A DNA stretch of 45,369 bases from a virus. This document shows, one piece after another, positions 2,638 to 37,111 of the stretch (its first letter is position 1; every line of letters begins with the position of its first letter). The translations under genes and the position numbers were made by a program. The notes beneath the pieces are model-generated. The model made no database searches. It worked only from the letters and a program-made list of their open reading frames with translations, and was not told the DNA's origin. Location: positions 1 through 45,369 of the IMG/VR virus record IMGVR_UViG_3300033512_000238. One strand, given 5' to 3'.

Positions 2638-2790
2638 ACGGCCCGCGGGACATTCTCGAGGCTCTCGGGTTTTATGGCGTCGAACCGTCGAGAACTATCC
2701 CGCCGCCGAACCCGGGCACAAGTTCGCGGAGCTCAAGTAATCGGAGCGAAGCTCCTCGCGGGTTTTCGTTTTTCAACAGATCGGGTAAAA

Positions 2791-4655: not shown

Positions 4656-4671
4656 ACAGAAAGGGCCGGGA

Positions 4672-5991: not shown

Positions 5992-8900
5992 TGAAAGCTC
6001 CGGCGATGCTCTACCCGACATTGATCGAGAAACAATTCGCGAACGACTCAGAACAATTCGGGGACGCTCTCCGGGCGTATGTTCTCGAGGAGTTCGTCCC
6101 GGAGCTCCGGGGAATAGCGGCCCGCGTGGAACGGGAGCGAACGGACGACGCGAACCTCCCGGGCGACGGGCATTGGTCGAGCGATATACAAAGAGCTCTC
6201 CGGAGACTAAAGAACAAAGCCGACGAGATAGCGGCAACCTCGGAACCTCTCGCGGACGCGGCGTCGTTCAAGGTCGAACAATGGACAAACAAGGAAATTT
6301 TGAAGCTCGAGAAGCTCCTCCCGGCCGATTACCTCGCGGCGAATAAAACCGGGTACAACCCGGAGAACATACGGAACAGCCTCCGGAAAGCGTGGTCCAA
6401 AAATTACGCGGGACTAATAACCGCGGTAACGGACGAAACGGTCGCGAAGGTCGGCCGCATTGTATACGAGGGATTCGCGGTGGGGGAGAGTTACAAGTCG
6501 ATAGAGAAAAAAATTATTTCCGGGGGGCCTATTGAGGCGCTAAAAAATCCGCCATTCAATACGGCCCGGAAGCGGTCGCGATTGATAGCCCGGGACCAAA
6601 TCGGGAAACTTAACGGGAAACTAATCGAGAAGCGACAAACACAGCTCGGGATAGATTCGTATATTTGGCGGACCTCTCTCGACGAGCGCGTCCGGGGGAA
6701 CCCGTCCGGGCGCTATCCGAACGCGGTCCCGTCTCATTATGGCCGGGAGGGGAAGGTCTACAAATGGGACACCCCGCCGGAGGGAGGACACCCCGGGGAG
6801 GCTATTTTGTGCAGATGTACGGCGGAGCCATATATCGAGGGAGTAACGGGGGAACAGGGGGCCGCGGGAGTGACCGGGAAAACTATCGGACCGGCTCAAA
6901 GCCTCGGGGCTAAAATCGAGAATCTCAGAACAGCGGCGGCGGCGGCTCTCAATCTCGCGAGCAATACGGCCGGTGAAGCTATCCGGGCTCTCTCGACAGC
7001 GGAAACGGCCGCGAAGGAACTCGAGGACCTCGTCGACGGAATAGTCGGGATAGAGGACGAACTCGACGAGCTCGCAAAGAAAGCCGCGACAGTGAAGCTG
7101 AACGAGAAACTAAAGCAAGCGGAAGCGGCGAAAGCGGCGGCGGCGGGGCTCTCCGGGAAAGCTCAAAAGGCGAAAGCGGCGGCGGAAAAGGTGAACAGCG
7201 CGAAAGCGGCCGGGCCCGCGGCAAAAGCACAAGCGGCGGCGGCATTGTCTCACGTCGAAAACATCGAGAAAACCCTCGAGGCTCTCGACAATGTTCTCGC
7301 AAAAGCGGTGGCGGCAAAAGCGGCGGCGGAGGATAAACTCGCGAAAGCTCTCGCAATCAAAAAAGCAAAAGCGGCGGCGCTCGAGGAGGCGGAGGACCTC
7401 GTCGATGGGCTCGAGGGAGTCGACGCGGCTATCGTAAAAAGTAAATTCACAAAGGGAGAGTTCGACGCCGACGGGGAGGCGTTCGCCAAAAACATAAAAG
7501 CCGAAGCGGCCGCCGTTCTCTCGAAACTGAAAAAGGGGGGCGCCGCTTTTCAAAAGGCCGAAAGCATGATCAAGGACGCCGACTATTATCTCGCGGCGAA
7601 GCTCAAGAGCGAAGCGGCAAAACTCGCGGCGCTATCAACAGCGAACACAACAGCGGACGCGGCTCTCGCGAGTAAATACGGGGTAAACGCCGCCGGGATA
7701 AAAGCGGTCGACGCGAGCGAATGGACGTACAAAAGCCCAAAACAGGGGTCGAACCCCGGGGGAATTTACGAGGACAAAGCCGGGGCCCGTTATATTGTAA
7801 AAGTTATGGACGAGGAACACGCTATAAACGAGCTCCTCGCGTCGAAACTCTACAAAGCGGCGGGCGTTCACACTTCCGACATGATGCTCGTCGAGGGCGT
7901 GAACTACAACGGGAAACCGACGAGGGCTCTCGCGGGCCGGTGGATCGACGGTTTAGAGTCGGGCGTCTCAGAACTCAAAAGCGCGAAAACGGGGCCGGGC
8001 GGCTTTATTGACGGCGCGGGTGTCGATATGTGGCTCGCGAATTGGGATTCCGTCGGGCTCACTATGGACAACATACTCAAGGACACAGCCGGGAACCTCG
8101 TCCGAATTGACGTAGGGGCCGCGATGAAATTCCGGGCGCAAGGTCAAAAGAAACCATTCGAGGCCGGAAAGGTCCCGGAGCTCGAAACGTACCTAAACGG
8201 GGTAAACGACCAAATAACACCGATTTTGTCGAAATATAGCGCGGACGATATAACCCGGAGTCTCGAGAAAGTCGCGAATTTTACGGACGAAACTATCGAC
8301 GACATTCTCGACACAGTGTGGAAAGGTTCGACGCTCCCGGATAAAACGCGGGAGGAGTACCGGGAAGCGCTCAAAGGGCGCCGGGACGTAATTCGGGCCG
8401 AATGGGAGAAAAGAGACGGACCGAAGCTCTCCGGGGCGGCTCTCCCGGGGGCGATAAAAGGGAAAGCCCCGAAACCGTTCGACCCGTTCGACGATTACAA
8501 ACCCGGTGACGCGGTCCCGTTCCTATCTCCGGAAAAGTCGGACCATTTCCTCGCGAAGTACAAGAGCAACGGGAAAACGACGATGAAAAACGCGCTCGAA
8601 GCGAACGGGCTCGAGTCGGACAAAAATCTCGTAACCTATCCGGACGACGTTATCGAGGACGTCAAAGAATGGATGACAAAAGCGGACAAAGCTATCGAGG
8701 GCGGCGGGCCATTCCCGAAACCGCTCGACCTAAACGCCATAAGTAAAAAGATAAAAGCGGCGGAGGACGCGAAAATCGCCGCGGCAAAACTCGCGAACAA
8801 AGCAACGGCGGAGGGATTAAACAAAATGGCCGCCGATTCTTACGTCAAGGCCGACGAACTCCTCGAGAAAGCTATCGACGAGCTATACACGGTGGAAAAA

Positions 8901-9977
8901 TCCGACTTTTTGACAGTGAAGAACAACGCGGAGAAAGCTCTCGCAATTGCAACGGACGCGAAAGAAACGGCGGAGAAAGCCGCGAAGCTAGGGTACGAAG
9001 AAAAGGCGGTAATTCAAGAGCTACAGCAGGTGATAGACAACGCGGAGGCGGTCCTCTCCTCTCCGGAGTATATCGCAATCAAAAAGAAAGCGGGCGGAGA
9101 CACCTCGGCAAAAGCCCGTACTATAGGGGCCATAACGGCAAAGGAAAAAGAGGAGCGCCGGAAAGAACTCGGGAGGGACAACACAAACCCGGCCGCCGCT
9201 TTCGTTTTACAGGAGGGGAAACCGCTCGCGCAAACTGCAGAGGGCTTTCGGATAGTATTCGCGGACGACAAAAAGTACGCGAAAGACCTCGTCGACGCCG
9301 GGGTACAAGGGGCCGACGGTTATCAGTTGAACCGCGGAGACGGGAAAAAAAGGTGGGTCTCTATGGTGAAAAAGAAAATAGAAGGGCCGTGGACAAAGGG
9401 GTCGAACCGCGACTATTTGGAACGCGATGGCGTCCCGTGGGATAAATACGGAACAGAGAAGGACGCGCACGAGGTTTTGAGAGATTACACCGGCGGGTCG
9501 TATGGCAGTAGAAACAACTATTTACGCGGAATATCAAACCCGAACCCGCTCACGGCCGCAAAGCTCGACAGGGAGCATAAAGCCGCGGCGGAGCTAATAA
9601 GGCAACACACGGTAAAGGAGCCGCTCGTCGTTTGGCGCGGAGGAGATACGGCTTTCCTTAATAGTTTACTAAAACAAAGCGGGAAAAAGCTCGAGGACCT
9701 CGTCGGGACGGTTTACACCGAACACGCCTTTATGAGTACAACGACGACACACCGGGTAGCGTTCGAAGGGGGGACACTTTTCCGCCTCAATGTGCCTAAA
9801 GGGGCGAAAGCTATCCCGGCCCGACATATTTCGCAAATAACGGGAGAGGACGAAATAATATTCCCGCCGACGACGCGGTTTTATATTTCGGATATTCAAA
9901 ACATCGACTCGAGCCATGTATTGCACAACGGGCGGCACAATCGAGTAATAACGGTCGAAATTTTACCGGAGGAGTAA
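5991..9977 (+). CDS. polyvalent head protein: MuF/SPP1-gp7 minor-capsid domain + kinase-like module + C-terminal mono-ADP-ribosyltransferase (R-S-ExE) module
   Basis: MuF signature RSRLIARDQIGKLNG ... GEAILCRCTAEPYI. Ala/Lys/Glu coiled-coil linkers. GSNPGGIYEDKAGARYIVK ... DMWLANWDSVGLTMDNIL ... RIDVG (atypical kinase-like). C-terminal VVWRGG / FMSTTT / GEDEIIFPP triad. GTG 5991 overlaps the portal TAG; the alternative start is ATG 6006. Confidence 0.8.
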   Translation: MKAPAMLYPTLIEKQFANDSEQFGDALRAYVLEEFVPELRGIAARVERERTDDANLPGDGHWSSDIQRALRRLKNKADEIAATSEPLADAASFKVEQWTNKEILKLEKLLPADYLAANKTGYNPENIRNSLRKAWSKNYAGLITAVTDETVAKVGRIVYEGFAVGESYKSIEKKIISGGPIEALKNPPFNTARKRSRLIARDQIGKLNGKLIEKRQTQLGIDSYIWRTSLDERVRGNPSGRYPNAVPSHYGREGKVYKWDTPPEGGHPGEAILCRCTAEPYIEGVTGEQGAAGVTGKTIGPAQSLGAKIENLRTAAAAALNLASNTAGEAIRALSTAETAAKELEDLVDGIVGIEDELDELAKKAATVKLNEKLKQAEAAKAAAAGLSGKAQKAKAAAEKVNSAKAAGPAAKAQAAAALSHVENIEKTLEALDNVLAKAVAAKAAAEDKLAKALAIKKAKAAALEEAEDLVDGLEGVDAAIVKSKFTKGEFDADGEAFAKNIKAEAAAVLSKLKKGGAAFQKAESMIKDADYYLAAKLKSEAAKLAALSTANTTADAALASKYGVNAAGIKAVDASEWTYKSPKQGSNPGGIYEDKAGARYIVKVMDEEHAINELLASKLYKAAGVHTSDMMLVEGVNYNGKPTRALAGRWIDGLESGVSELKSAKTGPGGFIDGAGVDMWLANWDSVGLTMDNILKDTAGNLVRIDVGAAMKFRAQGQKKPFEAGKVPELETYLNGVNDQITPILSKYSADDITRSLEKVANFTDETIDDILDTVWKGSTLPDKTREEYREALKGRRDVIRAEWEKRDGPKLSGAALPGAIKGKAPKPFDPFDDYKPGDAVPFLSPEKSDHFLAKYKSNGKTTMKNALEANGLESDKNLVTYPDDVIEDVKEWMTKADKAIEGGGPFPKPLDLNAISKKIKAAEDAKIAAAKLANKATAEGLNKMAADSYVKADELLEKAIDELYTVEKSDFLTVKNNAEKALAIATDAKETAEKAAKLGYEEKAVIQELQQVIDNAEAVLSSPEYIAIKKKAGGDTSAKARTIGAITAKEKEERRKELGRDNTNPAAAFVLQEGKPLAQTAEGFRIVFADDKKYAKDLVDAGVQGADGYQLNRGDGKKRWVSMVKKKIEGPWTKGSNRDYLERDGVPWDKYGTEKDAHEVLRDYTGGSYGSRNNYLRGISNPNPLTAAKLDREHKAAAELIRQHTVKEPLVVWRGGDTAFLNSLLKQSGKKLEDLVGTVYTEHAFMSTTTTHRVAFEGGTLFRLNVPKGAKAIPARHISQITGEDEIIFPPTTRFYISDIQNIDSSHVLHNGRHNRVITVEILPEE

Positions 9978-9982
9978 GGGAT

Positions 9983-10261
9983 ATGGAAAGGGAAAACACG
10001 GGGGAGATACTCGACGAGTCGGGCCTCTCGCAATGTTTATTTTGTACACGATGGACCGGGCGGGGAACGTGCGAAGCCTATCCGGGGGAACCGTTCAAAG
10101 TGCCGGTGGTTATTCTCGCGAATAAACACGATCACCGGGACGCCTATCCGGGGGACGGCGGTCTCCTATTTTCTCCGGCGAATAGAGAAAGCGCGATAAA
10201 ACAGGACAAAGCCGTCGAACGGGCTCGAGTCGGGTCGATTACTTTTAGAGGGGGGAAATAG
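9983..10261 (+). CDS. hypothetical small Cys/His-containing protein (92 aa)
   Basis: ORF track, with GAGGAG about 10 nt upstream. Contains CLFC ... C ... HDH, a possible metal site. No family recognised. Confidence 0.5.
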   Translation: MERENTGEILDESGLSQCLFCTRWTGRGTCEAYPGEPFKVPVVILANKHDHRDAYPGDGGLLFSPANRESAIKQDKAVERARVGSITFRGGK

Positions 10262-10443
10262 TGGCGAACGAGGAAAAACAAGAGGACGGGTTCACGGTAA
10301 GGACTCTCGGGGAGGCGGTCGGCCGGGCGGTCGGACAATACGCGGCGGAACGATTGACGGGGCGAATAGTGGTGACAATAGACCTGCGGGACGGCGGAAT
10401 CGGCCGGGCCGGGATTGAGGTATCGAGCAAGCTCCGGCCATAA
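10261..10443 (+). CDS. hypothetical protein (60 aa)
   Basis: GTG 10261 overlaps the upstream TAG (TAGTG). Last ORF before the P1 intergenic region. Confidence 0.4.
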   Translation: MANEEKQEDGFTVRTLGEAVGRAVGQYAAERLTGRIVVTIDLRDGGIGRAGIEVSSKLRP

Positions 10444-10500: not shown

Positions 10501-10544
10501 TCGCTTTTTTATTGTTTTAGTGTTATATTTTAGAATGTAACAAC
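10501..10544 (+). promoter_or_regulatory. promoter P1 with near-palindromic box (extended -10 TGTTATATT; weak -35)
   Basis: TATATT at 10524-10529 preceded by TGT. Box TGTTATATTT-TA-GAATGTAACA at 10521-10542. Same box as at four other loci. Confidence 0.6.
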
Positions 10545-10552
10545 GAAGGACA

Positions 10553-10581
10553 GCCCGAAGGGCAAAACAAAGGTGGACCAA
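10553..10581 (+). promoter_or_regulatory. leader hairpin + Shine-Dalgarno unit, copy 1
   Basis: GCCC-GAA-GGGC followed by AAAACAAAGGTGGACCAA then ATG 10582. Confidence 0.55.
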
Positions 10582-11472
10582 ATGGAACAAATCAAAGCAG
10601 TAGCGACAGTCAAAACAACAAAAGCAGGGGAAACGGTTTATCATTACGCGGTAGCACTCCCGGCAATGACAGCGGACGACGGCGAAGAAATGGCCGCTGT
10701 CGAATCAACTCGCAAAACTGACAACAAGTACAGCCACGTTGTATTGTGGAATAGTAAAAGAGGCGTCCCGGTCGTTTGTGGATATACGAACGACGCGGCC
10801 GGATATATTGCCCGGACTCTCTCAGAGGACAACCGCCTCCGGAAAATGTACAAAAAGGAGCCATTAACAGCGGCGGACCATTGTCTCCGGGCGGTCGCGA
10901 TTGAGTTCGTAGAAGCTCCGGTAAAAGCTCCGAAAACAGCAAAAGCAAAAGCGGAAGCGGCTCCGGTTATCGAAGCGGCTCCGGCTATCGAAGAAACCCC
11001 GGCCCCGGTAGCTCTCGAAGCGGCTCCGGTCGCTCCGGTTGTCCCGACAGCGGCGGAGGCGAATCTCGACGGTTTTGTCGTCGAGATCGACAGAACCACC
11101 GGCGTTTGTTTTATCTCCGGGGGGAAGTACAACGCGGAGAAAGCGCTCACTATTATTCACCGAAACGATTGGTGGCTCCGAAACATCGGGGAGGACGTCC
11201 TCGACCTTATCGCGACGGTGAACAATAGCGATATACACGGCCGCGAGTTCAAAGAGGCGGCCTATCAACTCCTTAAAATTTGCCAACCGGAAGAACAGGC
11301 GGCCGCCGCAATCGCGACAACGGACGAGGAGGAAAGCGTCCTGCGTCAACTCTCATACGTTCACGGATTCACGTCGACACCGGAGGAGACTCCGGAGCCA
11401 AACGTCGAGAAACTTATCCGGGCCGCATTTTTGAACGGGAGACAGCGCGGGAGAACCGCCGGGAAAGAATAA
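10582..11472 (+). CDS. hypothetical two-domain early protein with Ala/Pro-rich linker (296 aa)
   Basis: First ORF after P1. The ATG sits at the spacing seen in the other leader units. The middle is APVKAPKTAKAKAEAAPVIEAAPAIEETPAPVALEAAPVAPVVP. No family recognised. Confidence 0.65.
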   Translation: MEQIKAVATVKTTKAGETVYHYAVALPAMTADDGEEMAAVESTRKTDNKYSHVVLWNSKRGVPVVCGYTNDAAGYIARTLSEDNRLRKMYKKEPLTAADHCLRAVAIEFVEAPVKAPKTAKAKAEAAPVIEAAPAIEETPAPVALEAAPVAPVVPTAAEANLDGFVVEIDRTTGVCFISGGKYNAEKALTIIHRNDWWLRNIGEDVLDLIATVNNSDIHGREFKEAAYQLLKICQPEEQAAAAIATTDEEESVLRQLSYVHGFTSTPEETPEPNVEKLIRAAFLNGRQRGRTAGKE

Positions 11473-11504: not shown

Positions 11505-11514
11505 AGACTTGAAA

Positions 11515-11544
11515 GCCCGAAGGGCAAAACGAAAGGGGCCAAAA
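11515..11544 (+). promoter_or_regulatory. leader hairpin + Shine-Dalgarno unit, copy 2
   Basis: GCCC-GAA-GGGC followed by AAAACGAAAGGGGCCAAAA then ATG 11545. Confidence 0.55.
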
Positions 11545-11805
11545 ATGGCAAAGATATTTTTCACAAACGGGGCGGAGATCGAGGTCGACCTCGCGCCGAA
11601 ATTTAAGGCCGGGGAGATTCTCCCGATATTACAGGGGCTTTTGGGCGGCTATATCCAAATAGCAACGGCGGTCGATACGGACGCCGGGACCGTCCTCGTA
11701 ATTGTGAACGAGGACGGGCTCGCGCTCGGGCTCGATCAAAACGCGCGGTTCCCTCAGTACGTCGGAACAGTGGTAACGGTTATCGACGGCGTCGAGATAG
11801 ACTAA
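11545..11805 (+). CDS. DUF3846-like protein (86 aa)
   Basis: ILQGLLGGYIQIA ... LVIVNEDGLALGLDQNARF matches my recollection of the DUF3846 pattern (l..lq..vGGyie.v ... NEeG.l.gLp.N). Confidence 0.55.
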   Translation: MAKIFFTNGAEIEVDLAPKFKAGEILPILQGLLGGYIQIATAVDTDAGTVLVIVNEDGLALGLDQNARFPQYVGTVVTVIDGVEID

Positions 11806-11859: not shown

Positions 11860-12252
11860 ATGGACAAAATGCCGAAAGAACTCGAAAGAATTATTCACGC
11901 GAAAATCGAGCGCGAACTCCGCAAAAATGACACAAGAGCGGGACAACTAACGGACGCGGAAAAGGCCGCATGGCTCGAGGTTCAAGAGCTCGCGGACGCC
12001 TCCCGACAAATCCGGGAGAAGCTCAAGACGAAACAACGCCTATTTTGGGCCATTCTCGAGAGTCGTCTCGAGATATACGACAAAAATCTCCATTTGGACG
12101 AGAAAACGGGGGAGGTTTTCGTCTCCGGGAAACGAACCCGCGAAGAGGTCGAGACAGCGGTCCGGGAGGCTCTCAAAGGGACGCCGCTCGAGGGAGCCGC
12201 AGAGAATTTCAGTTTTGACGTTTTCGGGGACGACGAGGAGGCCCGCGAGTGA
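11860..12252 (+). CDS. hypothetical protein (130 aa)
   Basis: ORF track. GAGGAG plus an A-run upstream of the ATG. Helical and charged. No family recognised. Confidence 0.6.
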   Translation: MDKMPKELERIIHAKIERELRKNDTRAGQLTDAEKAAWLEVQELADASRQIREKLKTKQRLFWAILESRLEIYDKNLHLDEKTGEVFVSGKRTREEVETAVREALKGTPLEGAAENFSFDVFGDDEEARE

Positions 12253-12527
12253 TTAAATATGAAGTTTTTCAAGACGGGTCGGAGTGGATAGCCCGGTCCC
12301 AAAATGGCAAAGAGGCCAAAGGGAACACAGCGGCGGAGGCTCTCGAGAATCTCGTCCGGGAGGAGATAATCGAGTACAACCTCGCGACGGGGAGAACGTG
12401 CGATAAATGCGAAAACTCGACACAGGACGCCGGGGGGAATTTCTCTTGCACTCTCGACGAACTATTCGACGACGAGGGGGAGCAAGTAGCCCCGGGCCAT
12501 ACTTGCGAGGGGTATCTCGGGTGGTAA
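12249..12527 (+). CDS. hypothetical Cys-containing protein (92 aa)
   Basis: GTG 12249 overlaps the upstream TGA (GTGA). Contains CDKC ... C ... C, a possible zinc ribbon. Confidence 0.5.
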   Translation: MIKYEVFQDGSEWIARSQNGKEAKGNTAAEALENLVREEIIEYNLATGRTCDKCENSTQDAGGNFSCTLDELFDDEGEQVAPGHTCEGYLGW

Positions 12528-13131
12528 AAGAGACAGCAATACAAAAACCGGAGGGCTTTCGGGAAATATGGCGGCGCTCTCCGCTTTTGCGGCAGGATTA
12601 TTGGGTCTCAAATTTGGGTCGCCTCCGGAGGACGACAGGGGCGGGGGCGGCCCCAAAGGGTGGCGGGCCGATTCTCACGGGGAAAAAGGGGCGGGAAAGT
12701 CGATTTTGTACAAAGTAATGAACCCCGAAGGGAAGAAAAAACAATTTACGGCCGGGCGCCTCGTCGCGTCGGCCTTTTTGGGGTACACGGGGCCGGGAAA
12801 CCGGGTCGTATATCTTGACGGGGACGCGGAGAACCTCCGGCCGGAAAATCTCAAGATAGCCGCCTCCGCGAGCGAAGCTATCCGGGAGCAACGGGCACGA
12901 CTACCCCGGGCCATTGCCTCGAGTTTCACCGGGGAGCCGTATATCCGGACAGAGAACACTCCGGCGGGGGAACGGTTCTCGGTTTATTTGGGCATGAGGT
13001 ACGAACGGTTCAAGAAGTACGGGGGACAATGGGAGACCCTCGAAAAGGCGGTTATCGAGCGGGACCGGCTCGTCGATAGATACGAAGCGGCGATAATGAT
13101 CGCGGAGAAAAATATCATAACGATAAAATAA
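12521..13131 (+). CDS. NUMOD4 / HNH_3-like / AP2-like homing-endonuclease homologue. It needs a -1 shift near 12682-12688, and the catalytic His positions are substituted (possible pseudogene).
   Basis: Frame 2 from GTG 12521 (GAGGGG upstream) gives EIWRRSP ... YWVSNLGRLRR (NUMOD4) and stops at 12716-12718. Frame 1 (ORF track 12568..13131) continues with GKSILYKVMNPEGKKKQFTAGRLVASAFLG ... VVYLDGDAENLRPENL (HNH_3-like, His replaced) and GERFSVYLGMRYERFKKYGGQWETLEKAV (AP2-like). The junction run is GGGGAAAAAGGGG. Confidence 0.6.
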
Positions 13132-13133: not shown

Positions 13134-13176
13134 TTGACATTTCGCGCTCTCAGTGTTATATTTCAAAATGTAACAA
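13134..13176 (+). promoter_or_regulatory. promoter P2 (TTGACA-17-TATATT) with near-palindromic box
   Basis: TTGACA 13134-13139, 17-nt spacer ending TGT, TATATT 13157-13162. Box TGTTATATTT-CA-AAATGTAACA at 13154-13175. Confidence 0.75.
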
Positions 13177-13513: not shown

Positions 13514-13520
13514 ATTGACA

Positions 13521-13550
13521 CCCCGAAGGGGGAAACGAAAGGCGGCCAAA
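13521..13550 (+). promoter_or_regulatory. leader hairpin + Shine-Dalgarno unit, copy 4
   Basis: CCCC-GAA-GGGG followed by GAAACGAAAGGCGGCCAAA then ATG 13551. Confidence 0.5.
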
Positions 13551-14210
13551 ATGGCACGAGAAAAAGAGTTCGACCTCGACGCGGCTATCGCGGAGACGGT
13601 TCGGAAATTTACGGCGGGGGATTGTTTTCTCCTCGCGTCAAAAGTGAAAGCCTCGAAAGGTCTCGTTTGTAAGCGATTCTTTACGGGAGAGGACGCGGCG
13701 GAGGGCCTCCGGGCGTCTCGCGTTGGTCTATCGGTCGGCCGCGTGGAGTGGTCCGGCGTTTGGATTGTACCGGCGGACAAACGCGACGGCGTCGCAGATC
13801 AATTCGAACACAAAAACGAGATACCGGTCGAGGGCCTCGTCGCTTTTGCCTCTCGAGCAATCGGGGCCGATAGCGTGGACCATTACCGGGCATTTAATCG
13901 CCTTTTCCCTTTCGACGCTCGAGACCTCGCGACCGGGCCTCTTATCGCGACGAAAAAGGGAAAGGAGTCTTGGGAGTTTCTCCGGGTCGGCCATAACAAA
14001 ACAACGGAAGCGCTCGAGACCATGAAAGCTATACACCGGGGGGAGAGTTTCGGGGAGATTATCGTCGCGGCGGGTCCGGACGGCGAACGGGTCCGGGGAA
14101 TGATCGCGGACGGGCAAATCGAGCGGGCTCGAGATGTTTCGATTTATTGGGGGACAACTCCGGACCCTCGAGGGAAAGCTCTCGCAATGTATCAAGGCGG
14201 CGAACAATGA
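13551..14210 (+). CDS. hypothetical protein (219 aa)
   Basis: ORF track 13443..14210. I prefer ATG 13551, which has the conserved leader unit. No family recognised. Confidence 0.6.
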   Translation: MAREKEFDLDAAIAETVRKFTAGDCFLLASKVKASKGLVCKRFFTGEDAAEGLRASRVGLSVGRVEWSGVWIVPADKRDGVADQFEHKNEIPVEGLVAFASRAIGADSVDHYRAFNRLFPFDARDLATGPLIATKKGKESWEFLRVGHNKTTEALETMKAIHRGESFGEIIVAAGPDGERVRGMIADGQIERARDVSIYWGTTPDPRGKALAMYQGGEQ

Positions 14211-14464
14211 TCCGCGGGGAGCTCCTTATATTGGGAGAAAAGTCGAACGAGTTTTCGGACCGGACCGCCGGGGCGTTGTGGATTACAGAAAAGGCCGCGC
14301 TCGAAAATGGGTGGGACGTGATTAGGGCCGATTATGGCGAAGATTGGGCCGGGCTTTACGGCCCCGGGATTGAATACTCCCCGGTTTTAATGGTTTTAAA
14401 AATAGAAGGGACTCCGGTCGGAATCTCGATAGCGTGTAGGGGCTCGAATAATGGGAAAAAGTAG
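14207..14464 (+). CDS. hypothetical protein (85 aa)
   Basis: ATG 14207 overlaps the upstream TGA (ATGA). Confidence 0.5.
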   Translation: MIRGELLILGEKSNEFSDRTAGALWITEKAALENGWDVIRADYGEDWAGLYGPGIEYSPVLMVLKIEGTPVGISIACRGSNNGKK

Positions 14465-14702
14465 TATTTTGTATTTTGTGAACGACGGGCCGGACGAGTC
14501 TCATGTTTTTTGGGAGTCGTCGCAATTCGGGACCCTAAAAGAGGCCCGGGAGTATATCCAAACGCTCGCGGCGGGGCGTTGGTATCGCCTCGAGAGGCAC
14601 GATTACAGCAATGTAAAACCGTTCGCCGTTTCAACCCCGGAGAACGTCCGGACAATTGAAGGGCCAAAAGAGAAAAAAAACGACGAGGAGGTCGGGAAAT
14701 GA
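14451..14702 (+). CDS. hypothetical protein (83 aa) ending in the KKNDEEVGK junction cassette
   Basis: ORF track. Its last 9 codons are part of the repeated AAAAAACGACGAGGAGGTCGG(G)AAATGA cassette. Confidence 0.5.
   Translation: MGKSSILYFVNDGPDESHVFWESSQFGTLKEAREYIQTLAAGRWYRLERHDYSNVKPFAVSTPENVRTIEGPKEKKNDEEVGK
14673..14702 (+). promoter_or_regulatory. junction/RBS cassette, copy 1
   Basis: aaaaaaaacgacgaggaggtcgggaaatga. A strong GAGGAGG SD, with ATG 14699 overlapping TGA 14700-14702. Confidence 0.6.
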
Positions 14703-14896
14703 ATCGAGAAAACAAAACAATCGTAACAATTGCCGGGAAAGAATACAACGCGACCGGCTTTCAAATCAACGCGCCTCACTTTATGGCCGGGCCGCAATGG
14801 CTCAAGACTCCGGGACGGATCGCGGTCGCGGTCGTTCACTCAAAGAGAACAGAAAACGCGCTTTATTTTGGAACGGGGGCCGCAAATGGTCGGTAA
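14699..14896 (+). CDS. hypothetical protein (65 aa)
   Basis: ATGA overlap with the upstream ORF and a strong SD. No family recognised. Confidence 0.5.
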   Translation: MNRENKTIVTIAGKEYNATGFQINAPHFMAGPQWLKTPGRIAVAVVHSKRTENALYFGTGAANGR

Positions 14897-15587
14897 ATTA
14901 TGGCATTGTGATTTGGAAACCGGCGGACTCAACCCGCGGACCTCCGCAATAGTGCAGGTCGCTTGTATCATGGAAATAGACGGCGAAAAAGTCGGCCGGT
15001 TCTCCTCTTTGGTTCGGCCATTCCCGGGGCTCGAATGTACGGACGAGGCTCTCGCTATTTCGGGAATACAACGCGCGGACCTCGAAGGGGCTCCGGACGA
15101 GAAACGAGTATTTTCGGAAATGTTCGCTTGGCTTTCGGCTTATGTTTCGAAGTTCGACAAAGCCGACAAAGCAATTTTTACAGGGTACAACTCGCAGTTC
15201 GACGACGGATTCGTCCGGGCCGCTTGCGACCGTCACGGGGAGAAATACCTCGGGTCTTGGAAATGGCCCGACGTTTACGACGTCCGGGGAGCCGCGGCGC
15301 TCTATTGTCTCCCGTATCGCCATTGGCTCCCGGACTTTCAACTCGGGACCGTTTCGGAGTTCCTCCTCCGGGATTACGACAGCCCGGAAATGATCGCAAC
15401 GACGGTAGCGCGGGCGCTTGGTATTCCCGGAACAGGTCTGCACGACGCGCGGGTCGATATTGAGCTCTCGAGGCTTTTATTTCATAAGGTCCGACAGCCG
15501 TTTCAATTCCGAATATCTCGGGAGGAGCTCGAGAGACGCCTCGAGCACGTTCGCGAGTTCAAAGAGGCGAAAGGGGGCCAAAAATGA
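14886..15587 (+). CDS. DEDDh 3'-5' exonuclease (DnaQ/epsilon-like)
   Basis: WHCDLETGGL (Exo I D-x-E), YNSQFDDGF (Exo II) and GLHDARVDIELS (Exo III H-x4-D). ATG 14886 is chosen within ORF 14730..15587. Confidence 0.75.
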   Translation: MVGKLWHCDLETGGLNPRTSAIVQVACIMEIDGEKVGRFSSLVRPFPGLECTDEALAISGIQRADLEGAPDEKRVFSEMFAWLSAYVSKFDKADKAIFTGYNSQFDDGFVRAACDRHGEKYLGSWKWPDVYDVRGAAALYCLPYRHWLPDFQLGTVSEFLLRDYDSPEMIATTVARALGIPGTGLHDARVDIELSRLLFHKVRQPFQFRISREELERRLEHVREFKEAKGGQK

Positions 15588-15940
15588 GCGGCCTCCCGTG
15601 GACAAAGGAGCTAAAACAGATCGCCGCGGAGATCGAGACCAAACGAGACCCCGAAACGGCGGCGGACATTGTTCGAGACCTCGCGAGACAGGTCCGGGAG
15701 TTATCGGCGGGGACCGGCCGGGAGTTATCGGCCGCGCGGGAAATGCTCGACGAGCTCCGGGCGCTCTTTGGTCAGTACAAGTTCGAAACGGCGGGGAAAA
15801 TCGAAGAGCTCGAGGGGAATCTCGAAGAACAGCGGACGTATATCTCCGCGCTCGATGACTCTCTCCTCCGGCCGGACGGGGAGGCCGCGAGGTTTTGGGC
15901 TCAAAGCATACGAGAAGAAAGGGCGGCGGAGAATGGGTAA
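15584..15940 (+). CDS. hypothetical coiled-coil protein (118 aa)
   Basis: ATG 15584 overlaps the upstream TGA (ATGA). Charged and helical. Confidence 0.5.
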   Translation: MSGLPWTKELKQIAAEIETKRDPETAADIVRDLARQVRELSAGTGRELSAAREMLDELRALFGQYKFETAGKIEELEGNLEEQRTYISALDDSLLRPDGEAARFWAQSIREERAAENG

Positions 15941-16289
15941 TTTTTTAGACGTTGACGCGATCAAAAGCCGACAGAGACCGGCGGCATATTTCCCACTAAA
16001 GCGGAAGTGGTTCGAAGAGATCAAAGCCGGGACAAAAACAGAGGAGTACAGGGAAAAAACACAGCGAAGAGCGGCTCAGCTCGCGAAGCTCGTCCCGGGG
16101 GACGTGATCGAGTTTTCTCTCGGCTATCCCAAAAAGGACGACAAAGAGCGGAGAATACAAAAGCGTTTTCTATCGGTCGAGAGTCGAACCATTGAGCACG
16201 AGGAGTTCGGCGGGGAGAGTCTCGAGGTTTTCGCGATACTATTCGAGAACATACCGGAAACGGCGGGCCGCGCGGAGTTTTCTATATAG
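15933..16289 (+). CDS. ASCH-like domain protein (118 aa)
   Basis: FPLKRKWFEEIKAGTKTEEYRE ... GDVIEFSLGY resembles the ASCH beta-barrel pattern (from memory). ATG 15933 lies within ORF 15669..16289. Confidence 0.45.
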   Translation: MGNFLDVDAIKSRQRPAAYFPLKRKWFEEIKAGTKTEEYREKTQRRAAQLAKLVPGDVIEFSLGYPKKDDKERRIQKRFLSVESRTIEHEEFGGESLEVFAILFENIPETAGRAEFSI

Positions 16290-16348
16290 CGGGGGGCAAA
16301 AGGAAAGGAACCTAACAACGAGACAGCCCCGACAGCAACTAAAACGAG

Positions 16349-16384
16349 GCCCGGAGATAGTTCGACACTGCTCCGGGCTTTTTG
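16349..16384 (+). terminator. intrinsic terminator ending the early block
   Basis: GCCCGGAG 16349-16356 pairs with CTCCGGGC 16371-16378, then TTTTT. Confidence 0.7.
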
Positions 16385-16483
16385 CGTCTCAAAACAACTC
16401 GTTTGAGCGGTCGGCCCTCCGGCCTCGCGTATAGTATTAAACAAATTAAAAAACAAATACAATACAATAGCAGTAACACTACA

Positions 16484-16580
16484 CGTTCATGCTTTGCAAA
16501 GGTTCGCGATTGCTTTCGCTTTGCTCTCTTTTCGTTTTGCAATTGATAAGCAAATGCAAAGCAATTGCAAAGCAAAAGAA
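16484..16580. repeat. dyad array of TTTGC / GCAAA(G) pentamers
   Basis: The left half has TTTGC-type units (gctttgcaaag, ttgctttcgctttgctc, ttttgcaattg). The right half has GCAAA units (aagcaaatgcaaagcaattgcaaagcaaaag). The array lies 30-125 nt upstream of the late promoter -35. Confidence 0.6.
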
Positions 16581-16609
16581 GTTCAAAGATACCGCTCCGC
16601 TTTTTTTAT

Positions 16610-16639
16610 TTGACAAAAAAACGAAAATAGTCGTATATT
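16610..16639 (+). promoter_or_regulatory. late-operon promoter (TTGACA-18-TATATT), without the 24-nt box
   Basis: TTGACA 16610-16615 and TATATT 16634-16639, with a T-run immediately upstream (UP-like). Confidence 0.65.
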
Positions 16640-16680
16640 TTAACTCGAAAGCTATCCCGGTTCAAATAGTAGGAAACGGA

Positions 16681-16748
16681 AGAGGCGGACAAATGCGGAA
16701 AAATTCGACCTCCTCGTCGGGTCCCCGCTTTTGGCCGCCTCTTTTTTT
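16681..16748 (+). terminator. long hairpin + T7 run between the late promoter and the first structural gene (attenuator / antitermination target)
   Basis: AGAGGCGG 16681-16688 pairs with CCGCCTCT 16735-16742. Nested GCGG/CCGC and GACC/GGTC helices lie inside, followed by TTTTTTT (16742-16748). The RBS AGGAG and GTG 16763 follow. Confidence 0.6.
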
Positions 16749-16762
16749 ATGTAGGAGAAAAC

Positions 16763-17872
16763 GTGAAACGATACGACAGCGCGGAAATTATCGGAAAAGT
16801 AGAACTAACGCCGGAGGGGTATATCCGGGCGAAAGCCGTCGTCACTCGCGCCGGTACATTCCGATATAAAAACAAAGACGGGTCCGTCCGCGTGGAGCTC
16901 CGGAGAACCGACGAGGTATTCCGCGACGAGACCCTCGAATCTCTAAAAATGATACCAATCACAATTGGACACCCCGAAGAGTTCGTAAACGCTAAAAACG
17001 CGAAAGCGCTCGCAAAGGGATTTACCGGGGAAACCGTCGAACAACGCGGGGACGAGTGCCTCGTCTCAATATTGGTAACTCACGACGACGCTATCCGGGC
17101 TATTCAAAACGGCCGCCGGGAGCTCTCTCTCGGTTACGACGTCGCAATCGACCCGACTCCGGGGACATATAAGGGCGAACGATACGACAGCGAACAAACG
17201 GAAATTGTATATAATCACCTCGCAATAGTTGACCGGGCCCGGGCGGGCTCTCGGGCTTGTCTACGTTTCGACGCGGACGACGCCTATCGGGTCGACGAAA
17301 GCGAACAACTCGAAAGAGGAAAAACGATGAAAATCGAAATTAACGGCGTTTTTGTCGAAGTTGACGACGCGGTCGGGTCGGCGTATCTCGCGCAAGCGAA
17401 ACGCGCGGACGATGCGGAAACGAAAGCCGACGCGGCGAACACCGAAAAGGAAAAAGCCGAAGCGGCGGCGGACGATGCAAAAGCAAAAGCGGAAGCGGCG
17501 GAAAAACGCGCCGACTCTATGGACGCGGTAGACGCTATCGTCGAAAAACGTGTGCGCCTCCGGACCATTGCGGCTAAAGTAATGGACGCGGACGACCTCG
17601 CAAAACTTAACGTGAAGGACGAACGCGCTCAAATGATCGCGATTATCGCAAAACGTAACGACGGATTTACCGGCGAAGGCAAAAGCGACGAATATCTCGC
17701 GGCTCGTATCGATCTTATCGACGAGGAGAAACCGGCAAAACAGGAACCGGCAAAACAGGCCGGACAATTCCGCAAAGACGGCGACGACGAACAACGACAC
17801 GACGCGGCCGACATGGCGGCGGCGTACAATCGACAGTTTACACAGTACAACCACAAAACAGAACAGAAGTAA
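16763..17872 (+). CDS. capsid scaffolding / prohead-protease-like protein (DUF2213-like)
   Basis: AGGAG lies 7 nt before GTG 16763. The N-terminal region resembles DUF2213 (from memory). The C-terminal half is an Ala/Lys/Glu/Asp coiled coil typical of scaffolds. Precedes the major capsid gene. Confidence 0.6.
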   Translation: MKRYDSAEIIGKVELTPEGYIRAKAVVTRAGTFRYKNKDGSVRVELRRTDEVFRDETLESLKMIPITIGHPEEFVNAKNAKALAKGFTGETVEQRGDECLVSILVTHDDAIRAIQNGRRELSLGYDVAIDPTPGTYKGERYDSEQTEIVYNHLAIVDRARAGSRACLRFDADDAYRVDESEQLERGKTMKIEINGVFVEVDDAVGSAYLAQAKRADDAETKADAANTEKEKAEAAADDAKAKAEAAEKRADSMDAVDAIVEKRVRLRTIAAKVMDADDLAKLNVKDERAQMIAIIAKRNDGFTGEGKSDEYLAARIDLIDEEKPAKQEPAKQAGQFRKDGDDEQRHDAADMAAAYNRQFTQYNHKTEQK

Positions 17873-17883
17873 GGCGGGGAAAA

Positions 17884-18333
17884 ATGAATCTATTCACGAA
17901 TACTTACGCGGCGGAAATGGCCCCCTATTCTCCGGGCCAAAAATTCGACATTGGATTCGATCATGTAGAGACCGGAATCGCGGCGGAAGCGCTCAACTTT
18001 GGTGAAGCGGCCGTAAAAAACAGCGGCGACAACCGAATCAAAAAACCGGCGGCAAGCGGCGATAAATTCCGCGGAATCGTTCTCAAGTCTCACACGGTCG
18101 AAACCGGGAAAGGGTACGCAATAAACGACCCCGTACCCGTATTGAGACAGGGCCGCGCGTCGGTTACTACATCGGGCGCAGTGGCAGTCGACGCGGTAGC
18201 ATACGCGGACGTATCGGCGCCGGGGAACTTCACAGCGACAGCGACCGGAAATATCGCAACGGGCGGTGTTTTCCGTTCGGACGTTACCGCAGTTGGCGGC
18301 GGCGTTGCAATTCTTGAAATTAACCTTCCGTAA
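17884..18333 (+). CDS. small head protein (DUF2190-like, decoration/cement candidate)
   Basis: A 149-aa Gly/Ala/Val-rich beta-type sequence between the scaffold and the major capsid gene. Confidence 0.45.
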   Translation: MNLFTNTYAAEMAPYSPGQKFDIGFDHVETGIAAEALNFGEAAVKNSGDNRIKKPAASGDKFRGIVLKSHTVETGKGYAINDPVPVLRQGRASVTTSGAVAVDAVAYADVSAPGNFTATATGNIATGGVFRSDVTAVGGGVAILEINLP

Positions 18334-18351
18334 CAAAGAAAGCGGGCCAAA

Positions 18352-19317
18352 ATGAAACCGGATAAAATCCAAACACAGCACCTCGACGCGAACGAAACCG
18401 CGCATTTTGAGGAACAGCTCAAGTACGTAAAAACCGAAACATACGACCGACTCTATCCGGAGTACGGCCTTTTTGCGGGCGGTTATTTCCCTATTTCTTA
18501 CGACGTACCGGACACCGCGACGAGTATCGAGGTTCGCTCTTTTGACCGGACCGGAATCGCATCGATTATTTCGGACTTTTCCGACGACTTACCACGCGCC
18601 GACATCATGGGAAAATCAGACACAGTTCCGGTTCGTCCTCTCGGGTCGTCTTATGGTTACAGCGTCGACGAGGCTCGAATCTCCGCGAAGATTGGCTCGA
18701 AGCTCGACGCGAGAAAAGCCGAAGCGGCGAAACAGTCAATTTTTGCGCGTATGAATGACATTATGTTCAAGGCTCGACCGGACACCCACGCGAAAATGAC
18801 GGGTATTTTGTACACCTCGGGAATACCGGTAACAGTTCTGCCGAACAACGCGGCCGGAACCTCGAAAAAGTGGGCCGACAAAACAGCCGACGAAATGCTC
18901 GCGGACCTTAAAACCATGAGTCAAGCGTCTTGGAAACTTACGAACGGTATCGAGAGACCGGACACGGTTCTCCTCCCTCTCGAGGCTTACGGAGAATGTT
19001 CGACCCGTCCTCGTTCAACTCAGAGCGACACGACCGTCCTCGAGTTTTTCCTTAAAACCTCGCCGTATATTACGCGCGTTGGTACTATCCCGGAACTCGA
19101 CAGCGTGACCCCTCGTCCGTCGGGCGTCGCGGGCTCGAGTTCGGTCGCTCTTGTTTACAAGAACGACAAAAATAAATTTGCTTTTGAAATTACAAAGCAG
19201 TTTGAACAGTTCCCGGCTCAAGAGCGGGGCCTCGAGTACGTTATCCCATGTTTGGCGAAAACCGCGGGCCCGGTGGTATACTACCCGCTTTCGATCACAA
19301 TTTGGGAAGGTCTCTAA
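18352..19317 (+). CDS. major capsid protein (DUF2184 / encapsulin-like type)
   Basis: A 321-aa ORF with the expected position and length. The N-terminal HFEEQLKYVKTETYDRLYPE ... DDLPRADI pattern recalls DUF2184 capsid proteins. Confidence 0.75.
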   Translation: MKPDKIQTQHLDANETAHFEEQLKYVKTETYDRLYPEYGLFAGGYFPISYDVPDTATSIEVRSFDRTGIASIISDFSDDLPRADIMGKSDTVPVRPLGSSYGYSVDEARISAKIGSKLDARKAEAAKQSIFARMNDIMFKARPDTHAKMTGILYTSGIPVTVLPNNAAGTSKKWADKTADEMLADLKTMSQASWKLTNGIERPDTVLLPLEAYGECSTRPRSTQSDTTVLEFFLKTSPYITRVGTIPELDSVTPRPSGVAGSSSVALVYKNDKNKFAFEITKQFEQFPAQERGLEYVIPCLAKTAGPVVYYPLSITIWEGL

Positions 19318-19345
19318 GAACCTCCGGGGCTAAAACCCCAAAAAG

Positions 19346-19369
19346 CGGGCCTCCAAAAGGGGCCCGTTT
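19346..19369 (+). terminator. stem-loop after the capsid gene (weak terminator or mRNA stabiliser)
   Basis: CGGGCCTC 19346-19353 pairs with GGGGCCCG 19359-19366 (one G-U pair), followed by only TTT. Confidence 0.35.
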
Positions 19370-19404
19370 CCCCTAAATTCTTACTATAGACAAGAGGTTG
19401 TAAA

Positions 19405-19851
19405 ATGGTTATTATCAACAACAAAACCGCGTCCGCTACTTTCGTTTGCGGTTTTTCAATTATTCCCGGCGTTCACTCTTATGAAATGACAGCGGAACAG
19501 CTCGAAGAGGCTCGAGCGAATGAGCTATTCGAAGAGCGCGAGAAGCGCGGGAAATTCGTCGTCGACTTAATGGAGGACGGCGTCCCGGCTCCGGACCAAA
19601 TCAAAGAACTAAAAGACGACGCGAGCGCGAAAGAGCTCGGGGACCTTATCGCAAAAGTAGAAAAGGCCCGCGACGCGGCGTCAAAAGCGGCCGAAAAAGC
19701 CGGAGCGGAACAGGACCCGGAGAAAAAAACGAAAGCCGAAGAGACAGCGGCAAAAGCGGCGGCGGCGTTGGATAAACTCGAGGAAGCTCTCGAAGTTAGA
19801 AAAGCCGAAGTAGCGAAAAAACGCGCTGAACTCGAAGCGGGCAACAATTGA
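19405..19851 (+). CDS. hypothetical head-associated coiled-coil protein (148 aa)
   Basis: ORF track. The C-terminal two thirds are Ala/Lys/Glu-rich and helical. Confidence 0.55.
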   Translation: MVIINNKTASATFVCGFSIIPGVHSYEMTAEQLEEARANELFEEREKRGKFVVDLMEDGVPAPDQIKELKDDASAKELGDLIAKVEKARDAASKAAEKAGAEQDPEKKTKAEETAAKAAAALDKLEEALEVRKAEVAKKRAELEAGNN

Positions 19852-20240
19852 CCCCGGAGCAGTTTATCGGAATACGGGAGCCGGGCGTCGTTATCGACGC
19901 GCGGGTCCTTTCTATGGTAGAGCTCACGACGTTTTATTTAGGGGAGGACGCTCTCGGGCGTGCGTACCCTATTTGCCGGGGCCTCCTCGTTCTTCATTGG
20001 TTAGCAGTGGAAACGGCGGCGGGTAATGGCACGACGGGGAGCTCTCTCGGGGCGGCGGCCGGGCCTCTCTCGAGCGAACAAGAGGGGGACCTCTCGAAAG
20101 CATACGCGACAGGGGACACAAAAGTCTCCGGGCTCTCGGGGCTCGAGAACCTAAACTCGACAGCATACGGGAAAGAACTCGCGGCAATGATACGCGCGAA
20201 CGTCTCGACGGCGTTTCTCGCGACGGACCCGGACGAATGA
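19848..20240 (+). CDS. head-tail connector / adaptor (DUF4054-like)
   Basis: TTG 19848 overlaps TGA 19849-19851 (TTGA). Position and size fit. LLVLHWLAV recalls the adaptor AH-motif region. Confidence 0.45.
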   Translation: MTPEQFIGIREPGVVIDARVLSMVELTTFYLGEDALGRAYPICRGLLVLHWLAVETAAGNGTTGSSLGAAAGPLSSEQEGDLSKAYATGDTKVSGLSGLENLNSTAYGKELAAMIRANVSTAFLATDPDE

Positions 20241-20710
20241 ACCACGCGGAGTTTTTGCACCCTCGCAAATATGCGGAAGCTATGGCAAAACTCCGGGCCT
20301 CTCTCGACGTTCTCGACGCCGCGGAGATCGCGGTCGGATTTCCGAAAGGAAAGGACCCGAAACCGCCGACGGAACCGGACGGGCCAAAAACAATGGCCAA
20401 TATTGCAACTATCGCCGCCATAAACGACGCGGAGCGGCCTTTCCTATCGGCGGGGCTCAAAGCGGCGGAGAATACTATCCGGGCGGCACAATACAAAGCG
20501 GTCGAAATGGTTTTCGATGGTTCGAACCCTATCGACGCGGCGGGAATGGTCGGGGAGGTAGCGGCGGCAAAAGTACGGTCCTATATTACAAGCGGACAAC
20601 ACAAACCGAACCTCCCGGCAACGATCAAGCGAAAAAAGTCGTCTAAGCCGTTGATAGACACCGGACAAATGAAAGCCTCGGTTACATTCTCGATACGTCG
20701 GAAAGGCTAA
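20237..20710 (+). CDS. head-tail joining protein (HK97 gp10-like)
   Basis: ATGA overlap with the upstream ORF. IAAINDAERPFLSAGLKA and PLIDTGQM resemble the gp10-family pattern. Confidence 0.45.
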   Translation: MNHAEFLHPRKYAEAMAKLRASLDVLDAAEIAVGFPKGKDPKPPTEPDGPKTMANIATIAAINDAERPFLSAGLKAAENTIRAAQYKAVEMVFDGSNPIDAAGMVGEVAAAKVRSYITSGQHKPNLPATIKRKKSSKPLIDTGQMKASVTFSIRRKG

Positions 20711-20713
20711 AAA

Positions 20714-21058
20714 ATGGGATTTCGAAAAGCGGCGGAGCTAATAAGAAAAAGCGGCGGCAGTTACATTGGGGGCCGGTGGGTCGACGGGGCGGAAACGCGA
20801 ACGCCGATAACGGTCTCAGTACAACACCGCGAGGCGGGCGGCTCTCAAGACAGGCGCGACCCTCTCCCGGAGGACGAACGGGCGGAAAGCTCGGTCACTC
20901 TCTACACGTCGACGGAACTCCGGCCCGGAGGACGTCCCGGAGTCGAGGCGGACCTCGTCGCGGTCTCCGGTAAGGTTTACGAAATCAAAACGGTTGAACC
21001 TTGGCAAAACGGCCTAATAAGTCACTACAAAGCAACGGCGGCGGAGGTTATAGCGTGA
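20714..21058 (+). CDS. head-closure / neck protein (114 aa)
   Basis: Position in the neck module. VTLYTS ... DLVAVSGKVYEIKTVEPW ... HYKATA resembles the SPP1 gp16 / HK97 gp9-type pattern. Confidence 0.45.
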   Translation: MGFRKAAELIRKSGGSYIGGRWVDGAETRTPITVSVQHREAGGSQDRRDPLPEDERAESSVTLYTSTELRPGGRPGVEADLVAVSGKVYEIKTVEPWQNGLISHYKATAAEVIA

Positions 21059-37082: not shown

Positions 37083-37111
37083 AAAGCGGCCGCACATGGA
37101 TTTAGGGGGAA

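Follow-up and report, generated by a model that had tools for sequence, protein, structure and literature searches.

A promoter-terminator cassette at the start of the head-tail operon of a 45-kb phage genome: a possible late attenuator and a linked family of small proteins

In phages that use the host RNA polymerase and have no sigma factor of their own, the timing of late gene expression is little understood outside the lambdoid and a few model phages. The precedent is the PR'-tR' arrangement of the lambdoid phages, from which in Stx phages the small RNA StxS is made (PMC7547250). Using ONT-cappable-seq, Putzeys et al. (2024, PMC10914365) mapped terminators within the 5' untranslated regions (5'-UTRs) of six virulent Pseudomonas phages; the 42 sites yield both short and long transcripts, and one of them, in YuA, precedes a major head gene. 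Small phage proteins that bind RNA polymerase and need no specific RNA site, namely p7 of Xp10 and gp39 of P23-45 (PMC3351154), cause the host enzyme to read through intrinsic terminators, so that later genes are expressed.

Here we analyse a stretch of phage DNA of 45,369 nt, designated the window. Its bases 1-141 are duplicated exactly at 45229-45369, and the window therefore represents a complete, circularly assembled genome of 45,228 bp. It is near-identical to one contig of assembly GCA_001188585.2 and to three metagenome contigs, and no nucleotide match to it was found among 50,697 deposited phage genomes. All genes are encoded on the + strand, tRNA genes were not found, and the gene layout is as follows:

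2674-9977, + strand: terminase, portal and a MuF-ADP-ribosyltransferase fusion
next ~6.3 kb after the fusion, + strand: small genes, an HNH endonuclease and an RNase T-like exonuclease
16290-16762: intergenic region of 473 nt

The genes located just 5' of the late promoter encode a coiled-coil protein and an ASCH-like protein of 118 aa each. Beyond the intergenic region follow the DUF2213 protease/scaffold, the cement protein, the major capsid protein and the tail genes, up to 37082.

In its presumed mode of operation, the intergenic region most closely resembles the lambdoid Q/PR'/qut/tR' module (6S RNA): in both, an intrinsic terminator lies no more than ~100-200 nt past a strong sigma-70 promoter and is succeeded by one long late operon, with a short RNA as the predicted default product. 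The structural module, in contrast to that of the lambdoid phages, is PB1/E217-like, and the first late genes are head genes rather than lysis genes. With the Pseudomonas elements (PMC10914365) it shares the order of a promoter and then a terminator inside the 5'-UTR, which there gives a short transcript (<250 nt) besides the long one. Those elements were found experimentally, whereas that of the window is known from sequence and comparison; moreover, the two have no sequence relationship, and the window-type cassette is linked to a specific family of small proteins. While p7 and gp39 act genome-wide, the layout seen here implies one dedicated terminator where the operon begins. As 5'-UTR terminators have already been mapped in Pseudomonas phages, the kind of element is already known. 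The comparisons presented below suggest three new features: in a broad group of uncultured phages the cassette is conserved where the head operon begins, it is tightly linked to an unannotated small protein, and two RNA designs occupy the same position. Our preferred reading, to which we assign a probability of roughly 0.5, is that the promoter at 16610 and the hairpin with its U7 tract at 16680-16748 form a promoter-proximal attenuator which gates the 20-kb late operon and is relieved by a phage factor.

Promoter, leader and terminator in front of the late operon

The elements of the locus, all of which lie on the + strand, are:

16601-16607, + strand: run of seven T just 5' of the -35 region, at a UP-element-like position
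16610-16639, + strand: sigma-70-type promoter TTGACA-18-TATATT (-35 at 16610-16615, -10 at 16634-16639)
16646-16652, + strand: CGAAAGC in the initially transcribed region, kept in the nearest relatives
16647-16748, + strand: predicted ~100-nt leader RNA (start deduced from where the -10 region lies, end from the U-tract)
16680-16743, + strand: 64-nt three-tier terminator hairpin (9-bp bottom stem, 4 bp, 4 bp and 7-bp top stem)
16742-16748, + strand: U7 tract of the terminator, ending 14 nt before GTG 16763
16753-16757, + strand: Shine-Dalgarno sequence AGGAG of the first late gene, 5 nt past the U-tract
16763-17872, + strand: DUF2213 (Pa193_gp24) head maturation protease/scaffold (PHROG 530, 1e-81; Pfam PF09979, 2e-42)
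16763-37082, + strand: head-tail (late) operon of tightly packed open reading frames
37109-37142, + strand: terminator at the 3' end of the late operon (-25.2 kcal/mol, z -5.3), with U6 behind the hairpin

The promoter at 16610 matches the sigma-70 consensus at 11 of 12 positions. Only two sites of this quality exist on both strands of the 45.2-kb genome (13134 and 16610), both of them intergenic and on the coding strand, compared to 0.16 sites per genome expected from block shuffles (P for at least two sites, 0.01). Six other promoters carry a 22-nt palindromic box, TGTTATATTTnnAAATGTAACA, for which no occurrence was expected by chance. The box is a near-perfect palindrome which spans the extended -10 region and the start site (10521-10542, 13154-13175, 37247-37268, 37294-37315, 40675-40696 and 42140-42161), is kept in the relative L157, and looks like the operator for one dimeric repressor acting on all early and middle units. 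The 16610 promoter is the only one of the seven without it, which marks a separately regulated class.

According to RNAfold, the bottom stem of the leader hairpin is formed by 16680-16688 with 16735-16743 (AGAGGCGG/CCGCCTCT plus one A-U pair), followed by the inner helices CAAA/UUUG (16690-93 with 16730-33) and GCGG/CCGC (16695-98 with 16725-28) and by a 7-bp top stem (16703-09 with 16716-22) which closes the loop CUCCUC (16710-16715). The segment 16680-16750 folds with -33.4 kcal/mol (z = -4.55), and none of 200 shuffled sequences was as stable. Among the 15 runs of at least six T on the + strand, a strong hairpin precedes only those at 16742 (-32.7 kcal/mol) and 37137 (-29.2 kcal/mol). The leader hairpin and the terminator at the end of the operon are thus the two strongest + strand terminators of the genome, and they flank the late operon, one of them being placed between the operon and its promoter. 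At the sequence level, this position between the predicted transcription start and the first start codon corresponds to the class of 5'-UTR elements causing premature termination, and the hairpin is probably a functional 5'-UTR terminator with a regulatory role.

An earlier model-made reading of the letters alone (the sequence-only reading) had described most of these elements. Its TTGACA-18-TATATT promoter with a T-run upstream and without the box, its seven T at 16742-16748 and its AGGAG followed by GTG 16763 were all located where it had placed them, and the GTG start is backed by the alignment of homologues from residue 1. The nested hairpin that it had drawn was recovered with regard to the pairing of 16681-16688 with 16735-16742 and to the GCGG/CCGC helix, while its GACC/GGTC helix represents an alternative register of the top stem. 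Its statement that no other convincing promoter is present between 16763 and 37112 also held: the sole + strand site with at least 10 of 12 matches is located at 19387, where the -10 region overlaps the next start codon. Neither a convincing promoter nor a strong terminator was found inside the late operon. As strong internal terminators are absent, processive antitermination is not demanded, and any antitermination may be local or processive. In the 87-nt gap after the major capsid gene (19318-19404), two small GC hairpins and a weak U-tract (GGGCC...GGCCC GUUUCCCC) were noted, which could be a partial terminator raising the ratio of capsid to tail transcripts.

How read-through of the leader terminator might be achieved was considered from the leader itself. 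A competing antiterminator fold was not found in the window leader: when truncated, it folds no better than shuffled sequences (z = -0.07), and the inner helices are nested within the terminator hairpin and do not compete with it. The target of a factor would therefore have to be either RNA polymerase or the hairpin itself. The initially transcribed region shows no obvious -10-like pause element of the kind known from the lambdoid module; reading of +1 to +25 revealed no well-matching TAnnnT hexamer. The leader could also toggle the terminator without any phage protein, either as a put-like RNA acting in cis or as a riboswitch or thermosensor. Although the leader is structured and its tiered hairpin shape recurs in the relatives L151 and L006, we regard such autonomous control as very improbable: no alternative fold is present, no sequence core that could form a ligand pocket is conserved across relatives, a constitutive cis-acting antiterminator would render the terminator pointless, and searches against Rfam 15 gave no family match in the whole window at gathering or relaxed thresholds. 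The only sub-threshold Rfam matches were miRNA-like and fell on the palindrome at 16500-16590.

Coupling to translation was considered as well, in which ribosomes on a leader open reading frame starting at ATG 16693 would melt the terminator. This frame is open through the hairpin up to 16869 and is preceded, at a spacing of 6 nt, by the Shine-Dalgarno-like sequence AAGAGG (16681-16686). The latter lies inside the 5' arm, however, and is sequestered once the hairpin forms, and L046, L051, L067, L151 and L006 possess no comparable reading frame or start codon. Because of this missing conservation, a leader peptide was rejected as the main mechanism, and a contribution of this kind is hardly to be expected.

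Recurrence of the layout and two RNA designs in relatives

With the protease as query, 80 metagenomic loci and one viral contig were collected, to which several loci were added via exact-protein look-ups (individual loci are designated by L numbers); a scan of a genome collection with the protease yielded no relatives. All homologues collected are distant, showing 31-54% protein identity to the window; P0002/P0122 (79-83% identical) and P0003 (54%) were left out of the DNA comparison. In one group of relatives, the MuF gene abuts the protease gene without an intergenic region. In the other, a promoter, a leader and a hairpin with U-run are found in this order 5' of the protease gene or of the gene just before it. 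This cassette consists of a near-consensus TTGACA-17/18-TATAnT promoter, a leader of 65-115 nt, a GC-rich hairpin and a U-run ending 7-35 nt before the start codon. About 20 relatives, with 35-46% identity in the protease, possess it directly in front of the gene that opens the head operon. A strict automatic screen, requiring a promoter with at least 10 of 12 matches, then a hairpin of -20 kcal/mol or lower and T6-8 ending 7-35 nt before the start, was passed by 9 of 67 non-redundant loci. By inspection, the cassette was also recognized in L151, L152, L153, L074, L056, L058, L073, L158-L165, L018, L023, L026, L007 and L008, and thus in all three of the closest relatives with retrievable DNA (L151, L152 and L153). 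It is absent at the DUF2213 homologues of the cultured phages Listeria B054, Erwinia phiEt88 and Hafnia Meifeng.

Long tiered hairpins also occur in L151 (z -6.5) and L006 (z -7.0), and their sequences are unrelated to that of the window. Since stem sequences are unrelated among relatives, it is structure and gene order that are conserved, not sequence. The window, L151 and L006 have in common the tiered hairpin, CGAAAGC after the -10 region, the ribosome-binding context GGAGAAAACG, which is identifiable in the window and L151, and phased palindromic repeats upstream of the -35 region. CGAAAGC was located by eye at an equal distance from the -10 region in the window (AACTCGAAAGC), L151 (TTACCGAAAGC), L006 (AACCTGAAGC) and L075 (AACTCTGAATAGC).

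An unusual layout that recurs with unrelated leaders favours a regulatory attenuator over chance. Consensus scans do yield many weak matches, and promoter-like and terminator-like sequences might thus lie side by side without a joint function. Such a coincidence is very unlikely, given the excess of 11/12 sites and the z-score of the hairpin reported above, and given that order and spacing are repeated in about 20 diverged loci. The comparison with related genomes that the sequence-only reading had suggested therefore supports its description of the layout. In a broad group of uncultured phages with PB1/E217-like structural genes, the cassette marks where the morphogenesis operon begins, and as a compact unit of small gene, consensus promoter, short leader and terminator it is portable over evolutionary time.

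In a sister clade, the leaders contain a small conserved hairpin (R1), whose 3' strand forms the first part of the terminator's 5' arm:

L046 880-917, L051 108-147, L067 2889-2929, L074 2592-2631, L075 2288-2333: R1 leader hairpins
L158 1241-1278, L160 1747-1795, L165 1399-1447: R1 leader hairpins

R1 is composed of the helices P1 (GCGG/CCGC) and P2 (GCCU/AGGU). A covariance model built from five leaders recovered three independent leaders at the expected place (E = 8e-4, 1e-3 and 0.03). P1 shows compensatory changes at two pairs, with a covariation score that was equalled by 9 of 500 shuffles. R1 is a candidate for a new cis-regulatory RNA motif which is not contained in Rfam. Its loop is often CCUCCUUUCA, like the 3' end of 16S rRNA. 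Owing to the overlap with the 5' arm of the terminator, conditional termination is built into the cassette of this clade, in the manner of the antiterminator hairpins that are bound by a protein in the BglG/SacY (RAT) and ANTAR systems. In the window, by contrast, the helices are nested in the terminator and an overlapping alternative hairpin was not found, and a protein with a CAT/PRD or ANTAR domain is not encoded. The R1 model gave 5.3 bits at 16691-16730 of the window leader, compared to a window background of up to 12.9 bits, so that the mechanistic hint from the sister clade is not transferable by homology. By eye, the window hairpin and the L046-group leaders had seemed to share the motif CCUCC...GGGU(GA)CCCCGC. 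A post-hoc regular expression for it matched only the window and L046-group leaders, and when viral contigs were scanned twice for the pattern, nothing emerged beyond two duplicates of known loci and random GC-rich matches. The claim of homology was dropped because the covariance model, built without the window, did not recover the window leader.

It is also possible to view the short RNA itself as the product, as a trans-acting small RNA of ~100 nt like the StxS made from PR'-tR', whose exposed C/U-rich loop (CUCCUC), which is anti-Shine-Dalgarno-like, would pair with ribosome-binding sites of host or early phage mRNAs. A strong promoter followed by a strong terminator would suit such an RNA, and loops containing CCUCC are present in six sister-clade leaders too. 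They are missing, however, in L151, L006, L165 and L162, sub-clades do not share their leader sequences, a target was not identified, and a complementarity of 5 nt is trivial. We judge this function to be improbable; it would be compatible with gating of the operon by the attenuator and does not exclude it.

A candidate regulator linked to the cassette

None of the known factors was detected: Q, N, sigma or other known transcription factors were found neither with PHROGs (40 window proteins) nor with Pfam (20 proteins), in line with the sequence-only reading, which had recognized no Q homologue, and at variance with the lambdoid phages, where Q is of the lambda, 82 or 21 type. The relatives provided a different candidate. 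In these, the gene which ends at or inside the promoter encodes a protein of ~60 aa with the motif FTGKIxITIHxRDGGI. A hidden Markov model of the small genes located directly 5' of the cassette in relatives matched one open reading frame of the window (E = 2.6e-10):

10261-10443, + strand: protein of 60 aa (one helix and a beta-hairpin), encoded at the end of the terminase-portal-MuF transcription unit

The family comprises 28 proteins, all of them unannotated and devoid of Pfam domains, and tblastn with the small protein gave no match in the 50,697 phage records. The AF2 model shows one helix and a beta-hairpin (pLDDT 79), and no significant fold match was obtained in PDB or BFVD. The protein is near neutral in charge, and a nucleic-acid-binding fold is not recognizable; no sequence or fold similarity to p7 or gp39 exists.

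The window copy lies 6 kb from the cassette and is followed by a terminator and a boxed promoter, an arrangement which is the same in the 75%-identical relative L157. It looks as if the common order of MuF, small gene, cassette and protease had been split by an insertion of ~6 kb. Among the loci with at least 450 nt of upstream sequence, 10 have both the cassette and the small protein, none the cassette only, 10 the protein only and 49 neither (Fisher p = 5e-7, without phylogenetic correction). Most of the 10 protein-only loci have a displaced or sub-threshold cassette on inspection, and the loci showing co-occurrence are distributed over at least five separate branches of a rough neighbour-joining tree of the protease.

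By synteny in relatives, the 60-aa protein is a candidate regulator of the cassette. The sequence-only reading had proposed protein- or RNA-mediated antitermination, with several other proteins as candidates. Its layout of promoter, leader, terminator and operon proved to be real, unusual and recurrent, while comparative support was obtained for none of its candidates (9983-10261, 12249-12527, 44318-44536 and the injected ADP-ribosyltransferase); 10261-10443, which is the neighbour of one of them, is, on grounds of gene order, better founded than these. The protein could equally have a function in head assembly, its linkage to the operon boundary being historical.

In the mechanism that we favour, host sigma-70 RNA polymerase would start near 16647 and by default release a ~100-nt leader RNA at the U-tract, until a phage-made factor suppresses the leader terminator and thereby permits productive late transcription. 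For the dependence of read-through on a phage factor we see an even chance. The best candidate for this factor is, judged from synteny, the product of 10261-10443, an assignment that we consider tentative. As the last gene of a long transcription unit, it would be made with a built-in delay, as is Q in lambda, and the relatives, like the lambdoid phages, have a small conserved gene directly 5' of the promoter and distal in a long earlier unit. On the other hand, the candidate differs from Q in its size of 60 aa, its helix plus beta-hairpin fold without known relative and, in the window, the distance of its gene from the promoter. Somewhat more doubtful still is the wider proposal that the family and the cassette constitute an undescribed two-part late switch, with the overlapping hairpin being used in one clade and the long tiered terminator hairpin in that of the window, and hence a new family of antiterminators analogous but unrelated to Q. 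Should the small protein be an antiterminator, it would join a very short list of families comprising N, Q, p7, gp39 and the LoaP type, and could serve as part of a minimal protein/terminator pair for synthetic gene control.

DNA upstream of the promoter and the alternative of a fixed attenuator

Two further features precede the promoter:

16349-16384, + strand: intrinsic terminator of the upstream (exonuclease/ASCH-like) operon (-22.7 kcal/mol, z -3.76, followed by UUUUU)
16489-16590, no strand assigned: AT-rich stretch upstream of the -35 region, forming an imperfect palindrome and containing 11-nt phased repeats (GCAAnTGCAAAG) as well as the block TTGCTTTCGCTTTGCT

Since the upstream operon is closed by a terminator of its own, insulation does not require the leader terminator, which thus acts on transcripts derived from the promoter. 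An exact 12-mer of the repeat array occurs only at 16550, 16561 and 37177, the last copy (within 37146-37196) being located just past the terminator of the late operon. The block TTGCTTTCGCTTTGCT is identical in the window and L006. At the same position relative to the promoter, L006 (150-290) carries three 11-nt repeats of another palindrome, and a related palindrome is present in L151 (1-30); the repeats of L006 and L151 conform to AACAnnTGTT, unlike that of the window. The array is possibly bound by a protein upstream of the -35 region; binding of a regulator, an origin or a packaging site are all possible functions. The presence of such an array suggests that initiation may be regulated as well, a possibility that the sequence-only reading had not raised.

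These repeats bear on what we consider the most serious alternative, although an unlikely one, in which the terminator is a fixed, leaky attenuator that stops a constant fraction of transcripts and sets only the level of expression, while timing is determined at initiation, for example by a repeat-bound protein, or by template copy number. The array, with its lineage-specific palindromes at the same place in L006 and L151, looks like a co-evolving DNA-binding site. No homologue of an antiterminator was found, and the window leader has no alternative fold. In addition, the promoter overlaps the end of the small gene in most relatives, in which the same terminator must therefore also end the upstream operon. 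Against this, a near-consensus promoter would need no activator, and the repeats are located at about -45 to -120 and not over the promoter, as would be expected of a repressor site. If the element did no more than trim expression, it would be odd to find in this role a hairpin of -33 kcal/mol with U7, which no other terminator of the genome surpasses. Furthermore, the window retains its leader terminator although the upstream operon has its own, and an overlapping hairpin such as that of the sister clade is typical of switchable terminators. We therefore prefer the conditional attenuator to the fixed one. If the terminator were merely leaky, the 5'-UTR terminators of phage transcriptomes would still be conserved design elements and not noise.

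A strain comparison had initially seemed to bear on the leader. L002, the strain in GCA_001188585.2, differs from the window by 13 substitutions in 16290-16609 and by one in 16610-16762 (p = 0.04). The low divergence of the leader was dropped as a sign of constraint, since divergence is ~0.1% in the late genes as well, and farther upstream the two sequences are unrelated. Across 13763-20870, the late genes differ by 0-0.2% and 16290-16609 by 4%, and further upstream L002 is unrelated or out of register (78-aa vs 118-aa gene). This pattern indicates a mosaic junction just 5' of the late promoter and not selection on the leader.

Several minor observations were made in the window and its relatives. 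Downstream of boxed promoters, the 5'-UTRs contain conserved mini-hairpins (GCCCGAAGGGC or CCCCGAAGGGG) followed by AAAACAAAGG and a start codon:

10549-10592, 11511-11554, 13517-13560, 42190-42233 and 42634-42677: mini-hairpins

As they have no U-tract, they are not terminators in this orientation, and they may be mRNA-stabilising or processing elements. In L023 (~2520), L162 (1432), L160 (~2146) and L068, the first gene past the cassette encodes a conserved protein (MPYPNEHAAR...) and not the protease, and in L074, L158, L160 and L165 an open reading frame of ~60-70 aa (FELPDEVILDLAAQ...) is located between the cassette and the protease gene. In the MuF fusion of the window (5991-9977; 1328 aa), the MuF head-morphogenesis domain is joined to an ADP-ribosyltransferase exotoxin domain at the C-terminus (Pfam 1.4e-18), in place of which the MuF protein of L160 has a faint RelA_SpoT match. 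Finally, the 45-kb genome encodes three HNH endonucleases (253-744, 12568-13131 and 44061-44336), a VRR-NUC nuclease (44718-45281) and a ParB-N6/N4 methylase fusion (875-2467).
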